The notes beneath the pieces were generated by a model, which made no database searches, was not told the DNA's origin, and saw only the letters and a list, made by a program, of their open reading frames with translations. DNA of 64,000 nt from a bacterium (GTDB lineage: Bacteria; Pseudomonadota; Alphaproteobacteria; Rickettsiales; RI-342). Position 1 is the first letter of the stretch; every line of letters starts with the position of its first letter. Positions 14,740 to 21,145 of this stretch are shown one piece after another. The translations under genes were made by a program, and so were the position numbers. The stretch covers positions 5,681 through 69,680 of the forward strand of contig WGMV01000026.1 in the NCBI GenBank assembly GCA_016124905.1, in the 5' to 3' direction.

Positions 14740-15192
14740 TCAGAGCGGGATGTTCGCCCGGTGCCTGGCGGGGCCGATGGTGATTGGGCTTCTGGCCGAG
14801 GTTTCATCCCCCGGGGAGGAAACGGCCACCTTGGTTTTTCGGCTGGCCTGGCGCGTTAGCTCCCTGCCCTTCACGTAGCCCACCGTCATGCAGGTGAGGC
14901 CCACAAAGCCGAGACCGGCGGCAAGCTCGGCCTGGCCGTTGAGCCCGAGCACGATGCTGCCGATTACCACCGTCATGGCGACGATGAAGGAAAGAATCTG
15001 CCCGAAATACATGCCCGATTGCTGAATCTGCGCCAGTTTTTCTTCCATCTGGTGACGGTGCTGCTGCTCTTTTTCAAGCAGTGCCAGAATGGTTTCCGCC
15101 GAGCCGGCGATAACATTGTTATAGGCCTGTAGCGTTTCCGGCGCGGGCAGAAACTCCATGGCGCGTTCAACGGGGCGGGTGCGTATGCTCAT
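14740..15192 (-). CDS. small membrane protein, DUF2335-like (two C-terminal TM helices)
   Basis: LPAPETLQAYNNVIAGSAETILALLEKEQQHRHQMEEK followed by two hydrophobic helices, a pattern I associate with DUF2335. The ATG overlaps the upstream stop (ATGA). Confidence 0.65.
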   Translation of the reverse strand: MSIRTRPVERAMEFLPAPETLQAYNNVIAGSAETILALLEKEQQHRHQMEEKLAQIQQSGMYFGQILSFIVAMTVVIGSIVLGLNGQAELAAGLGFVGLTCMTVGYVKGRELTRQASRKTKVAVSSPGDETSARSPITIGPARHRANIPL

Positions 15193-15407
15193 GGGTGCTT
15201 ATCCTGCGGTATCTCGGCGTGTTCGGTGATCCATTGCTTAAAGACGCGGTGCGCATCCTGCGAAATATTGAGATGGTCCAGCATCAGGCAGGCATCCGTA
15301 CTGCGGCGGGGAGAAATCCACTGCCGCGCATGCGCGCCATACACATAATAAGGCGCATAGAGCGCGGAGCCCATGAAGCGAAAAAACTGCTTCAGACCAT
15401 CCACCAT
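15189..15407 (-). CDS. 72-aa hypothetical protein
   Basis: The ATG at 15407 is preceded by AGGAAG, which overlaps the TAG of the upstream gene. The stop overlaps the next start (ATGA). The longer ORF-track start at 15494 would overlap the upstream gene by 79 nt. Confidence 0.5.
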   Translation of the reverse strand: MVDGLKQFFRFMGSALYAPYYVYGAHARQWISPRRSTDACLMLDHLNISQDAHRVFKQWITEHAEIPQDKHP

Positions 15408-15415
15408 CGCGCTTC

Positions 15416-16582
15416 CTAATTCTGTTTGCTGACAAAATAGTTCATGAGAATCTTCGCCGCCGCATATCCTACCCTGTTGGTGTAAGGGATGCATTCCATA
15501 TCCGCAATATCAAGCATCTGGGATGCGGTGGTGAAAAATTCGTAGCTGTTGGGCTGCAGCTTCATGTCCACAATCTCATCCACGCAGCATTTGAGGTGCC
15601 AGAAGAGGCGGTGCATGCCGTAAGGCAGGCGTGACATATCATAAAACTGGCGGAAGCTGTGGTAATTGCCGGTGTAGAGATCGGCCACCTTCTTCATGTC
15701 CATTTTGCTGCGCACCGCCATGCAGGACATGAAAAGCCGGTGATTGCCGAGCATCAGGATGGCTGCAAGAAAAATCGGCGACAAGGCGCCCTCGCGGTTG
15801 AAATAATCCGCTAGCTCGGAGCATTTTACATCATTGGGCACATTTCCAAGCGCCATCACGCGATCCAGATCCTCCAGAATGCCCGGGTCTACCTCGTCAT
15901 GCTCAAACATCTGGCGTTCGCGTTTGGCGACGATACGCTCCTTGGACATACTGGTGGAGCGCTCCACCATGTGCTTCACCGCCTTGGCGGGAATGGGATG
16001 ACGCTTCATGAAGGCCTGCATGATGTCGTCGGAATCGTAAAACTCATCGGCAATGTGATGGTAGTGTTTATCGTCAATCTCCGCGCCGGTATTTTCCAGC
16101 AGGGCGTGGCAGACCTCGTGAATCTTGCGTTCCACCAATGCCCCCACCACCTGCACCGAAACCTGGTTGCGGCGGGCAATGGCCAGCAGGCGGACGACCT
16201 GCTGCGTGGCCTGAATGATGGCCATCAGCTCCTCATCCTGTATGCGATGGGAATGCTGGAGTATGCGCGCGGCGACCTCGGGGTCGGCATCGTGGGCGAG
16301 TTCCAGCAGCATGTCCATCGGCGTGTGGTTGGATGTTTTGATGCCGTCGGCCATGGCCATGCGCACATCGCGCTGTTTATCGCGCGCAAGAAGGTAGGCA
16401 ATGTCCAGCGTCAGCTGATATTCGCGCTCACTCTGCGTGGCCTCCTCCATGCGCTGGCCAATTTTCATGGCAAGGGCGGCGCGTGTATTGGAAGAAGGAT
16501 CCTGCGCCAGACTCAGCAGATCATTGACGTTCAACGGTTGATTGGACGGCTTCGGCATAGTCATTGGCGCGCCATGTTGCAT
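15416..16582 (-). CDS. DUF2336-like helical-repeat protein (paralogue of 34138-35286)
   Basis: Shares a colinear pattern with the 382-aa protein at 34138: DVR...LA.D.D..VA..IL..S..L.D.(D/E)L..II......V....A.R..(L/V)...V..AL.......V...LL.N.GA. Confidence 0.7.
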   Translation of the reverse strand: MQHGAPMTMPKPSNQPLNVNDLLSLAQDPSSNTRAALAMKIGQRMEEATQSEREYQLTLDIAYLLARDKQRDVRMAMADGIKTSNHTPMDMLLELAHDADPEVAARILQHSHRIQDEELMAIIQATQQVVRLLAIARRNQVSVQVVGALVERKIHEVCHALLENTGAEIDDKHYHHIADEFYDSDDIMQAFMKRHPIPAKAVKHMVERSTSMSKERIVAKRERQMFEHDEVDPGILEDLDRVMALGNVPNDVKCSELADYFNREGALSPIFLAAILMLGNHRLFMSCMAVRSKMDMKKVADLYTGNYHSFRQFYDMSRLPYGMHRLFWHLKCCVDEIVDMKLQPNSYEFFTTASQMLDIADMECIPYTNRVGYAAAKILMNYFVSKQN

Positions 16583-19600: not shown

Positions 19601-21061
19601 AATACCATTGGGGCCGGTAATCACTCCACTCAAATTTTGCGCCATGTCATGCGCTTCTTCCGGCGTTTTGCCGCTGGCGATCAGGCCTGCCTCGATCAGG
19701 TCGTTAACCATCGTGATGCGTTCGGACTGCGGCGGCTGTAAGCCGGGGGTGGCATCCATCACCCAACTGGCGGCAGTGCCAACAACAGCACCAAGATTGC
19801 CCATGTTGCCCGTAGATATGGCGGTCATCACCGAATCGCGGACCGCTTCGGGGTATTTATCGAGGTTGGCGAGAATCGGCACCAGGGCGTCGTGTACATT
19901 TGCGGCATTCTCACCGAGCGATGGCTCAATGGCATCAAACATCAGCTCCGCACGGCGGGTGCGCTCGGCCATATCCGCACCTGCGGCAGCGATGTAGGTG
20001 TTGGCCAGATCACCAAAGGCGTCGTACATGGCCGCTTTATTTTCGGCGGTCGGGTTATTGACGCCGTTCATGATGGCGGCGAATTTTGCGTCCGTTCCTG
20101 CAGCAAAAGCGCCGTTATTGTTGATCATCATGTCGGTGATGAGCGGGAGGTAGGGTGCAAGCTGCTCTCGGGCTTCCGGCGGCAATTGGCCGCTGATGGC
20201 CTGCTGGAGCTGCAATGCCTGCTGCTGAGGGCTCAGAGTAACATCCACGCCGAGATATCCCAAAGCGTCTCGCTGCTTTTCCGGGGAAAGCGCCATGATG
20301 CTGGTGATGGTGCTTGAGAACTGTTCCGGGTTAATGCCGACAGATAAGACATCATCCCCCGTCAGGATCCCGCCCAAATTGAGGTTTGCCTGCACCGGAA
20401 GCGTGATGTTGTTGCTCATCAAGAACTGCCCCAGTCCCACCATATCAGGCTCATGCAGAAGCGGCGGGGCCGTTACGGTAGCGGCAGGGGTTTCAGCGGG
20501 AGCGGTTTCGGTTGACGTGGTATCAGCGGGCTCTTCCACCGGGGTATAATTTTCAGGCAGCGCGCGGCGGGCGAATTCGGCCAGCATGTCGGGCGCATAT
20601 CCGGTATTTACCGCATCCGCCCAAAGGGTGCTGGTCTGGGTGTTTTGCGCCTCGGAATAGGCAAGGCCGTCGAGAAACGTGACCGCCTTCTCAGGAGAGG
20701 TGAAAACAATGGTACGCAGTGTTTCGCCGTGGCTGTCATAGATTGTCACCGCGTTTTCATCGCTTAACGCCGCCCTGTTACCTTGAGGGCCCACCACCAG
20801 GTTGGCGCCGAAAGGAACGGTGTCCTCACCTATCGTTCCATTTGGAAAGCTCGTTGGCGTAGCGGGTGAAGCGCTTGAAAGGGTTGAAATGGCCAGGCTG
20901 CTGCTATCCCCGTTTGGGAGGGCGACGCCCGTCTGTTCCGTGTAATGCCCATCCGGATAGTAAACACGGACCGTGGCCGTGCCGTTGGCATCCTGCTGTA
21001 CGGCGACATAACGGCCGTTGCTTTGGTCAAAGAGAATAACACCAGGATTAAATTCGGGCAT
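16685..21061 (-). CDS. 1458-aa acidic hypothetical protein (ORFan; possible non-Sec secreted protein)
   Basis: Single uninterrupted frame. No signal peptide and no TM. One Cys and about a dozen Lys in 1458 residues, very rich in D/E/A/G/T/N/Q. Thr/Pro/Ala linkers. Gly/Met-rich hydrophobic patch around residues 920-970. I recognise no catalytic motif. Confidence 0.75.
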   Translation of the reverse strand: MPEFNPGVILFDQSNGRYVAVQQDANGTATVRVYYPDGHYTEQTGVALPNGDSSSLAISTLSSASPATPTSFPNGTIGEDTVPFGANLVVGPQGNRAALSDENAVTIYDSHGETLRTIVFTSPEKAVTFLDGLAYSEAQNTQTSTLWADAVNTGYAPDMLAEFARRALPENYTPVEEPADTTSTETAPAETPAATVTAPPLLHEPDMVGLGQFLMSNNITLPVQANLNLGGILTGDDVLSVGINPEQFSSTITSIMALSPEKQRDALGYLGVDVTLSPQQQALQLQQAISGQLPPEAREQLAPYLPLITDMMINNNGAFAAGTDAKFAAIMNGVNNPTAENKAAMYDAFGDLANTYIAAAGADMAERTRRAELMFDAIEPSLGENAANVHDALVPILANLDKYPEAVRDSVMTAISTGNMGNLGAVVGTAASWVMDATPGLQPPQSERITMVNDLIEAGLIASGKTPEEAHDMAQNLSGVITGPNGISQITPTDRMNAIFNDLAQGPDHYDEALLELSNWVNEADNPQERARRVGVVGNITTSLLTTTGMDSTTSTSIAGPLQNLIADFGSMPPAFRELAVNRLMGPPAATPDVMAEVVQDYVDYPLRVANLVQNPPPLTDTAAWEEIARLYNFDFNHDGTPDPYPRTDAELADWKRHMVEQAFGGNMAAPDQLSGMAAVNFGAGYDAANTQFTMYASELGINLASFGIDTAHPPTDHNYQVLMVGGTTDATTEPASTSQNVSFAQSMLGRLCARYGVTPQELASNGIVANPPPVPLTVDPGKIQDLQNLINAQVTEELDTFTVLNSDAGPSRISIAAGGVLQFDNDGDPNTPPIAIDAAWMQAHGYPTADAQGNPISPPTDFASFQSMVNSQVANRYGTLGDSTGIMPQPGSAAYTQWLNSTAQNVAERRRADASTAIDAVANNMAGGMGGAAMGILDMFNDIHTGNEQLDQLIQGFGRMLMSFFGGMVPEGSKEAVDIALDLRSDTYVADRAGNINDTSPNWGDGYATPAPENSPEVNAARTTSNAFAQSLAGALGGDGDWQSLATLVGTHPDQILATKEGQLGAAITMGLGELLDSDASSTGNTELYNNAVDQLNAEIPADRIPADTALGQAYAAAAANGPVSWMDIYQAAAADGLTQEEYDQLMGLLPEGELKNSIVADMAQGANMDTSTLNASVEAVAGADGVANVTVPEPTTTPYSFTPLTSEIDAVPFSFAIDSDHELTSDEAIQANAQALAITAQISENLMVIDEVNGTNYYGEFLNWLNQPAESRGPFPFNSQDNPELFGPDGKPIFMNGLDYGFNNGIITIAEGVTFNLGSIEVQGDLTADRGIGFMTSLSRASQQQQIDRQPVLPFGFDPIAAQNWFAVRGDNEQGVNQGAVDTTAWNTAQDHQNIVTIPQIDTRTASDIAHDWHEMVQETGVDMWAFDDVDVTALGNLSPPATGAAIVRTTEMAVQ

Positions 21062-21111
21062 ATGGCATCTTCATTCTGAATAGATTAACCCAATCCAAGG
21101 ATAGCGGCGCT

Positions 21112-21145
21112 CTATTAAACTTATGTGAACCCTTTGTGAACCCTT
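21112..21145 (-). promoter_or_regulatory. tandem 11-bp direct repeat overlapping a candidate promoter for the 1458-aa gene
   Basis: Plus strand has TGTGAACCCTT twice (21124-21134, 21135-21145). Read on the minus strand this gives TTCACA (21140-21135), a 17-nt spacer, then TAATAG (21117-21112), about 50 nt upstream of the ATG at 21061. Confidence 0.35.

Follow-up and report, generated by a model that had tools for sequence, protein, structure and literature searches.

Does a run of four adjacent genes headed by a very large protein without recognisable domains constitute one undescribed system, or do separate genes merely share a site? This question is raised by nucleotides 14740-21145 of a 64-kb stretch of the Rickettsiales (RI-342) contig WGMV01000026.1, which was analysed at its full length and is referred to here as the window. 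A preliminary description had proposed that four same-strand genes, encoding a hyper-acidic protein of 1458 amino acids (aa; hereafter the giant), a DUF2336-like protein, a 72-aa protein and a DUF2335-like membrane protein, form a lineage-specific string and are the best candidate for such a system. Our analysis did not demonstrate an undescribed system; what it found is a patchwork of an orphan acidic gene, a SpbR-like gene and phage-derived genes. We found no evidence for a new multi-gene system. As a tentative explanation, the locus may be a composite accessory island rather than a single four-gene machine, in which the giant would be a scaffold bound by the SpbR-like DUF2336 protein and timed by the regulator CtrA.

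Four genuine genes and their junctions

The list of open reading frames (ORFs) and their translations placed the four minus-strand genes exactly where they had been described. The features of the string are as follows; L005 is a contig of a second lineage described in the next section.

16685-21061, minus strand: giant orphan protein, ORF of 1458 aa
15416-16582, minus strand: DUF2336 (SpbR-like, HEAT-type helical-repeat) protein, 388 aa from the first ATG
15189-15407, minus strand: 72-aa protein (ORF spanning 15189-15494, ATG at 15407)
14740-15192, minus strand: DUF2335 membrane protein, 150 aa, two hydrophobic segments
21062-21145, minus strand: leader and promoter region of the giant gene, conserved in L005
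16583-16684, minus strand: spacer of 102 nt between the giant and DUF2336 genes, probably a separate promoter of a DUF2336-72aa-DUF2335 operon

The DUF2336 gene likely starts at the ATG at 16558, which gives 380 aa, as annotated in the public assembly. The junctions read as previously described. Besides the 102-nt spacer, the stop codon of DUF2336 and the next start read TAGGAAGCGCGATG, with AGGAAG overlapping TAG, and the 72-aa ORF and the DUF2335 gene overlap as ATGA. The 72-aa ORF is translationally coupled to both neighbours, in agreement with the tight coupling claimed for the last three genes. All four ORFs are genuine genes, far beyond chance, since the giant is intact in two lineages at 37% identity with a proportion of non-synonymous differences (pN) below that of synonymous ones (pS), and pN is likewise below pS for the 72-aa gene.

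The giant protein belongs to a family of two

The giant contains 1 Cys, 12 Lys (0.8%), 42 Arg, 107 Asp and 73 Glu, with a net charge of -126 and a pI of about 4. Its highest 19-residue Kyte-Doolittle mean is 1.05, indicating no transmembrane (TM) segment; Thr/Pro/Ala linkers are present, and neither GGxGxD, the motif of repeats-in-toxin (RTX) proteins, nor HExxH occurs in it. The compositional portrait drawn in the preliminary description was thus accurate. Within the protein, the motif [YLM]PxA[VLF]R ... W[VL]x[DE]A..ER..R recurs. Low-confidence predictions made it mostly alpha-helical: single-sequence AlphaFold2 models of its two halves reached predicted local distance difference test (pLDDT) scores of 44 and 38 and consisted of long helical stretches with a small beta domain at the N-terminus (about residues 1-155), and a better conserved region lies towards the C-terminus (about residues 1200-1400). 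Foldseek searches of these models (pLDDT 38-44) against the PDB gave no match at E <= 0.001.

Library searches bore out the claim that the giant stands outside any characterised family. It matched no family in Pfam, HemolysinCabind included, whether submitted whole or split into eight segments, and so the homology to a characterised family that had been named beforehand as contrary evidence did not emerge. No match was found in NCBIfam, PHROGs, PADLOC, PDB sequences (profile search), phage genomes (tblastn) or IMG/VR. A word-indexed search of 5.8 billion proteins retrieved the giant itself only (GC177_07275), the low-complexity words having probably flooded the candidates, and the same search with an alignment of the giant and its relative P0006 returned the query alone. 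Alignment-based metagenome scans (A1, A2) and viral scans (DUF2335, A2, A1) gave no match, and hhalign detected no relationship between the giant family and the DUF2336 family.

An exhaustive HMMER scan of 1.84 billion representatives, with residues 259-1458 of the giant as the query, yielded a single genuine relative, P0006 (1446 aa, E 6e-123), together with a weak match, P0007. P0006 and the giant align from end to end with many indels, their starts reading MPEFEPDVVLFDQASGRYVA versus MPEFNPGVILFDQSNGRYVA. The giant is therefore not strictly the ORFan that it had been called; with this one clear orthologue, it founds a family of two full-length members. P0006 occurs with identical sequence on two contigs, L005 (a 460-kb contig of the Joint Genome Institute) and L006, where the gene order is that of the window: the genes for PAH, a J-domain protein and proteins of 131/134 and 240/234 aa are followed, on the opposite strand, by those for the giant, DUF2336 (380 aa), a 68-aa protein, DUF2335, aroA-cmk, rpsA and an S49 peptidase.

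The window and L005 were compared at the amino-acid level, with the following identities.

rpsA: 93.5%
PAH: 89%
DUF2335: 86%
137-aa protein: 84%
aroA-cmk: 83%
S49: 81%
72-aa protein: 79%
DUF2336: 75%
J-domain protein: 67%
240-aa protein: 66%
giant: 37%

Nei-Gojobori estimates for the same pair gave a pN of 0.43 and a pS of 0.71 for the giant, as compared with a pN of 0.05-0.21 for its neighbours, such that non-synonymous change in the giant was 3-13 times that of the neighbours; the 72-aa gene had a pN of 0.11 and a pS of 0.47. These values indicate that all four genes are under purifying selection, the giant being by far the fastest-evolving; in its case the conclusion follows from a pN below pS and from frames that are intact in both lineages. 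The best conserved parts of the giant are its ends (47% identity over residues 1-100 and 42-48% over residues 1201-1400). Its Lys depletion is kept (0.8% in the giant and 0.3% in P0006, as compared with 3-8% in neighbouring proteins), as is its acidity (net charges of -126 and -168, respectively). GGxGxD is absent from P0006 as well. The former ORFan thereby joins a small family in which conserved protein ends and conserved regulatory sequences have been defined.

The weak match P0007, a protein made of Calx-beta repeats, comes from an unrelated glycosyltransferase/adhesin locus. Giant residues 1298-1355 or thereabouts (window 17000-17170), beginning GLDYGFNNGIITIAEGVTFNLGSIEVQGDL and kept in P0006, resemble the second half of the P0007 repeats (41-47% identity over 45-56 aa, pairwise E 7e-8). 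We rejected P0007 as a homologue; its score was summed over six repeats, and the Pfam Calx-beta model (PF03160) did not match the isolated C-terminal segment of the giant at E <= 10.

The DUF2336 protein is SpbR-like

The second gene was assigned to DUF2336 (PF10098) with 105.1 bits (E 5.6e-30, residues 103-302), as compared with a cutoff of 34.6 bits, confirming the earlier family call; Pfam also gave a weak HEAT_2 match. Against the NCBIfam equivalog model of SpbR (NF052659), the protein aligned over positions 1-327 of 358 and scored 153.8 bits, below the cutoff of 400. Its orthologues are 75% (L005) and 42-47% (P0003-P0005) identical, and the SpbR model scored P0003 at 175 and a DUF2336 paralogue elsewhere in the window at 159 bits. 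PADLOC returned two noise-level matches only (E 0.002 and 0.05). SpbR (CC2323) of Caulobacter crescentus is described as a substrate of RcdA/ClpXP with effects on the segregation of chromosomes and the development of the cell pole (bioRxiv 10.1101/2020.06.12.148478, a paper cited in PMC12700997). The window protein is thus a clear DUF2336 member resembling SpbR over most of the model and not a SpbR orthologue, the paralogue being equally close to that model.

The paralogue (34138-35286, plus strand; Pfam 3e-52) lies directly after a PAS-GGDEF-EAL gene (32115-33917). A search of genome contigs with the DUF2336 alignment found one locus, in a Kiloniellaceae metagenome-assembled genome, which proved to hold the other paralogue, beside a GGDEF-EAL gene; a 610-aa ORF occupies the same position before the DUF2336 gene there (L004 8085-11110). 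A cyclic di-GMP enzyme and a DUF2336 protein may be a conserved pairing.

The small ORF and DUF2335 gene form a phage cassette

The last protein is a DUF2335 member (PF10097, 6.7e-14, 52 bits as compared with a cutoff of 25) with two hydrophobic segments (highest 19-residue Kyte-Doolittle mean 2.61), as the preliminary description had it. The proposal that the last two genes belong to one new string was not supported. The DUF2335 protein corresponds to phrog_3996, a 'membrane protein' of the moron category (E 2.6e-24), and tblastn found matches in 12 phage genomes, with 31-35% identity to the phage proteins. A small overlapping ORF lies directly before the DUF2335 gene in Pseudomonas phage MD8 (79 aa; the genes are gp32/gp31), Lactococcus phage D6890 (75 aa; 026/027) and E. 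coli phage EC.W1-9 (108 aa). The pair was located at L008 3670-4372, L009 2691-3345 and L011 2035-2836 among the phage sequences. In Klebsiella phage RAH1, the tail module contains the DUF2335 gene, flanked by the tail tube and tape measure genes. The 72-aa protein of the window is 33% identical to MD8 gp32 (pairwise E 0.001) and matched no Pfam family; PADLOC gave no match for the 72-aa, DUF2335 or phage cassette proteins.

The small ORF and the DUF2335 gene are thus a mobile phage moron cassette of two genes, uncharacterised but widespread and recurring in temperate phages that are unrelated to one another. The window pair has the same order as in phages, an ORF of about 70-110 aa overlapping or abutting a two-segment DUF2335 protein; in contrast to the phage pairs, it lies on a chromosome away from other phage genes, and its translation is coupled to that of a cellular DUF2336 gene. 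Some papers on type VI secretion systems mention a 'DUF2335 phospholipase'; these mentions were set aside, as they apparently concern a different family.

Relatives carry the genes among gene transfer agent genes

Although the same four-gene string and its flanks recur in the second lineage (L005/L006), so that the co-occurrence suggested as a check was found there, the string is broken up in deeper relatives. In all three more distant contigs (L002, L003 and the contig of P0004), the DUF2336 orthologue lies beside genes of a gene transfer agent (GTA) of the RcGTA type. L002 reads, in order, the C-terminal 633 aa of a large acidic protein, a 102-nt spacer, DUF2336, g12, a 111-aa gene on the other strand, g13, a 78-aa ORF, DUF2335, a g14-like peptidase gene, a 75-aa gene on the other strand, and g15, such that the pair of small ORF and DUF2335 lies between g13 and g14. 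The GTA assignments rest on TIGR02217 for the distal tail gene g12 (247 bits), TIGR02218 for the hub gene g13 (281 bits), TIGR02219 for g14 (56 bits), and the GTA_TIM, Phage-tail_3 and Rcc01698_C domains of g15. The L002 DUF2335 protein is 43% identical to that of the window; no alignment was possible between the L002 78-aa and window 72-aa ORFs. The contig of P0004 carries genes for a 240-aa protein and a SUEL-lectin on the other strand, then DUF2336, g12 and g13. L003 carries genes for a head-tail adaptor and a tail tube, then genes for 172-aa and 233-aa proteins and a SUEL-lectin on the other strand, then DUF2336.

The string is therefore not one evolutionary unit: L002 separates DUF2336 from the pair by g12 and g13, and two lineages (L003 and the contig of P0004) have DUF2336 without the giant, with the opposite-strand SUEL-lectin gene in its place. 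Since the lectin gene takes that place in two lineages, the giant is dispensable for the rest of the block. The L002 fragment has 1.4% Lys and a net charge of -66 and shares position, spacer length, composition and a W..ER..R / PxxLR motif with the giant. Its homology to the giant was not significant (Smith-Waterman z 0.4-2.4; profile -0.2 bits), and we kept it as a positional and compositional counterpart only.

No GTA gene was found in the whole window by tblastn with the L002 and L003 GTA proteins, or within 10 kb in L005; the window locus accordingly holds none of g12 (TIGR02217), g13 (TIGR02218), g14 or g15 (GTA_TIM) and is not an RcGTA-like cluster. Orthologues of two of the four window genes, and of two divergent neighbours, nevertheless lie among g6, g9 and g12-g15 in the relatives, while none of the four proteins belongs to a GTA or phage structural family. 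The window arrangement equals that of the relatives minus the GTA genes. We consider it more likely that the interleaved state is ancestral and that the window reflects GTA gene loss, because the gene order g12-g15 is conserved across alphaproteobacterial GTAs. Two points speak against this scenario: it is a parsimony argument across four short, phylogenetically unplaced contigs, and the 8-nt junction between the DUF2336 and 72-aa genes holds no GTA remnant.

In the relatives themselves (L002 1-10492 and L003 1-4190), non-GTA genes interrupt the tail module where g10, g10.1 and g11 are expected, no tape-measure gene is recognisable in the L002 and L003 tail modules, and extra small genes stand between g12 and g13, g13 and g14, and g14 and g15. 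This GTA module could be a decaying cluster or an unusual one. An RcGTA-like tail module has been colonised by cellular and phage-moron genes where chaperone and tape-measure genes belong, and a sister lineage that lost the particle genes and kept the passengers would be a case for studying GTA-cluster decay.

Conserved CtrA-type boxes suggest separate promoters

We searched for TTAA-N7-TTAAC, the alphaproteobacterial CtrA consensus, and found three boxes around the string.

16610-16625: CtrA-type box, TTTACAATGCGTTAAC, 1 mismatch, in the spacer between the giant and DUF2336 genes
21115-21130: CtrA-type box, TTAAACTTATGTGAAC on the plus strand, 1 mismatch, upstream of the giant gene
21949-21964, plus strand: perfect CtrA-type box, TTAATCAGTTTTTAAC, just upstream of the 137-aa gene

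Upstream of the giant gene, AGGGTTCACA is present twice in tandem, in 11-bp phase with the box and with TTAA/TGAAC half-sites. L005 has boxes at the same three positions as the window; in its perfect box, TTAATGGCTTTTTAAC, the half-sites are kept and the N7 bases changed. The 16-mer TTTACAATGCGTTAAC of the spacer is an island of identity, the rest of the spacer diverging between the window and L005. Similarly, about 75 nt directly upstream of the giant ATG are nearly identical in L005, as compared with only 37% identity at the protein level in the coding sequence. A perfect box, TTAACTCCATATTAAC, lies directly upstream of the gene for the 172-aa homologue in L003, and a 1-mismatch box lies in the spacer between the large protein and DUF2336 in L002. 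No terminator-like site was found in the 102-nt spacer. The conserved leader matched no Rfam family and gave no RNA-structure signal (z +0.8).

The string thus has, in promoter regions and kept in relatives, the boxes looked for in members of a CtrA regulon. We infer separate promoters for the giant gene and for DUF2336-72aa-DUF2335, because of the conserved box in the 102-nt spacer and the conserved 75-nt leader before the giant gene. Control is likely CtrA-type and cell-cycle-like, as predicted from the boxes, which would fit both a cell-cycle gene such as spbR and a GTA neighbourhood. A functional tie between the giant and the other genes had been drawn from adjacency and shared strand; the giant gene probably has its own promoter and DUF2336 another.

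Two more 1-mismatch CtrA-type boxes (37725-37740 and 37889-37904) occur elsewhere in the window, in intergenic DNA upstream of a 717-aa AAA_25 gene (37943-40096).

A proposed composite island and its alternatives

The explanation that we tentatively favour has three layers. The first would be a DUF2336 (SpbR-like, HEAT-type) gene transcribed from a separate promoter, to which a conserved CtrA-type box points. In the second, this gene would be coupled in translation to a domesticated phage moron pair, the small protein and DUF2335. The third would be the lineage-restricted, Lys-depleted, polyanionic and mainly helical giant upstream, with its own conserved leader. The island would be what remained after GTA structural genes (g6, g9 and g12-g15 in relatives) were lost from the site. 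The giant may function as a non-enzymatic cytoplasmic polyanionic scaffold to which the adjacent HEAT-type DUF2336 protein binds, as Caulobacter SpbR binds the acidic hub PopZ; both would be timed by CtrA, and the phage-derived membrane pair would act independently.

Several observations weigh against this explanation. The link between the giant and DUF2336 rests on adjacency in two lineages, or three counting L002, whose fragment has no significant similarity to the giant, and the lineages with a lectin gene in its place have DUF2336 without it. The DUF2336 protein scores 154 bits as compared with the SpbR equivalog cutoff of 400. The structure predictions (pLDDT 38-44) are too poor to support or refute a scaffold. 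As for the boxes, a match to the consensus is no proof of CtrA binding, and the count of 7 in the window as compared with 2.9 expected was reached by 5 of 100 shuffles and is marginal; positional conservation is a stronger argument for them than enrichment.

Nearly as likely as a scaffold, though still doubtful, is that the giant leaves the cell by a Sec-independent pathway, for example a type I system, as a surface protein or effector, with DUF2336 and the pair as bystanders or helpers and with fast evolution under pressure from hosts, phages or competitors. The absence of a signal peptide and of a TM segment, the single Cys, the very low Lys content, the low pI and the Thr/Pro/Ala linkers would all suit such a protein, as would a rate of evolution above that of every neighbouring gene. 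At their C-termini, the giant, P0006 and the L002 fragment all have small hydrophobic residues after an acidic or polar one, and the segment around residues 1298-1355 resembles the repeats of P0007, a secreted-type repeat protein. However, the E-value of P0007 in the library search is owed to six summed repeats, and Pfam Calx-beta gave no match even on the isolated segment. The giant has no RTX (GGxGxD) motif, the mostly helical prediction is unlike the beta-repeat giant adhesins, and its conserved N- and C-terminal regions do not follow the polymorphic-toxin pattern. Neither in the window nor in L005 does an ABC transporter or membrane fusion protein (MFP) gene, or any other secretion gene, lie within 10 kb of the string, and the only MFP-like gene in the surrounding region resembles those of RND efflux systems. 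The suggestion of the preliminary description that Sec-independent secretion systems export the giant thus gained no direct support, in view of the missing motif, the missing adjacent secretion gene and the mainly helical prediction.

It is less likely, and in our view improbable, that the giant serves a GTA or prophage in a structural or accessory role (as a tape measure, fibre, ejected or decoy protein), having been retained or exapted when the other particle genes departed. The large acidic, Lys-poor protein of L002 ends 102 nt upstream of DUF2336 and is followed by g12-g15, near the canonical position of a tape measure, and the neighbouring cassette is phage-derived. The W..ER..R motif repeated in the giant is also in line with this idea, as fast evolution and Trp-spaced repeats are features of tail fibres and tape measures. 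On the other hand, the giant, P0006-type segments and the L002 fragment had zero matches in PHROGs, phage genomes, IMG/VR and the Pfam tape-measure and fibre families, the window and the 10-kb surroundings in L005 are free of GTA genes, and the two lineages with g6/g9 and g12/g13 beside DUF2336 do without the giant. Furthermore, GTAs have short tails, whereas a tape measure of 1458 aa would correspond to one of about 220 nm.

Finally, a decaying or non-functional giant ORF in a string that is an accident of adjacency, as its 37% identity, many indels between lineages and lack of a recognisable domain might suggest, is essentially excluded, given frames of 1458 and 1446 codons that are intact where synonymous sites are saturated, a pN below pS, conserved N-terminal (47%) and C-terminal (42-48%) regions, a near-invariant 75-nt leader and retained Lys depletion; these points largely dispose of the decaying gene that the preliminary description had allowed for.

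Relation to known proteins

Returning to the composite island, its scaffold part finds its closest parallel in the pairing of SpbR with PopZ: the window DUF2336 protein, too, is encoded beside a very acidic protein and has a CtrA-type box upstream. The large polar hub or scaffold proteins PopZ, HubP and FimV and acidic type I secretion substrates such as RsaA share with the giant strong acidity, few Lys and Cys residues, fast sequence turnover and a non-enzymatic nature. They differ from it in showing no sequence or fold similarity to it; HubP and FimV have a TM or LysM anchor and RsaA has RTX repeats, whereas the giant has none of these. GTAs depend on CtrA, which the window boxes would also fit. 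None of the four proteins belongs to a system in PADLOC.

A more specific proposal, which we regard as a long shot, is that the giant and the SpbR-like DUF2336 protein are a CtrA-timed scaffold-adaptor pair of an uncultured alphaproteobacterial lineage, a cell-pole module that is either PopZ/SpbR-like or linked to GTA release, the giant being a new protein family without detectable relatives beyond two or three genomes. If the giant and its SpbR-like neighbour cooperate, they would be a second, very different alphaproteobacterial pair of an acidic scaffold and a HEAT-type client under CtrA. The DUF2336 and DUF2335 families are already known, though uncharacterised; the giant belongs to no known kind of protein.

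Neighbouring genes

The string had been placed between housekeeping blocks, which does not hold on both sides. On the upstream side of the giant, three divergent small membrane-protein genes (21255-22937) are part of the same lineage-specific block.

21255-21977, plus strand: 240-aa membrane protein, divergent, co-conserved with the string
22017-22430, plus strand: 137-aa membrane-anchored or exported small protein, co-conserved with the string
22488-22937, plus strand: 149-aa membrane-anchored J-domain (DjlA-like) protein, kept in L005/L006

The 240-aa protein is a homologue of the 233-aa protein of L003 (tblastn 1e-41), is 66% identical to its L005 counterpart and matched no Pfam or NCBIfam family. 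The 137-aa protein is 53% identical to the 172-aa protein of L003 (tblastn 2e-43) and 84% identical to the L005 protein, with a sub-threshold GWxTD match only. The 149-aa protein matched Pfam DnaJ just below the cutoff (4.2e-6, 27.2 bits) and, weakly, NCBIfam DjlA.

Three further genes of the contig were noted. EPSP (5-enolpyruvylshikimate-3-phosphate) synthase and cytidylate kinase are fused in a 695-aa aroA-cmk product (12531-14618, minus strand), and the fusion is kept in L005/L006. A strong DUF2748 protein (430 bits) is encoded at 43614-44909 on the plus strand; this family is typical of Rickettsiales, which may hint at the affinity of the source genome, and our literature search returned no paper mentioning it. 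In addition, the phosphate acetyltransferase gene beside that of acetate kinase (25015-26427, minus strand) carries an N-terminal MaoC-dehydratase domain, according to precomputed Pfam annotation of the same contig.

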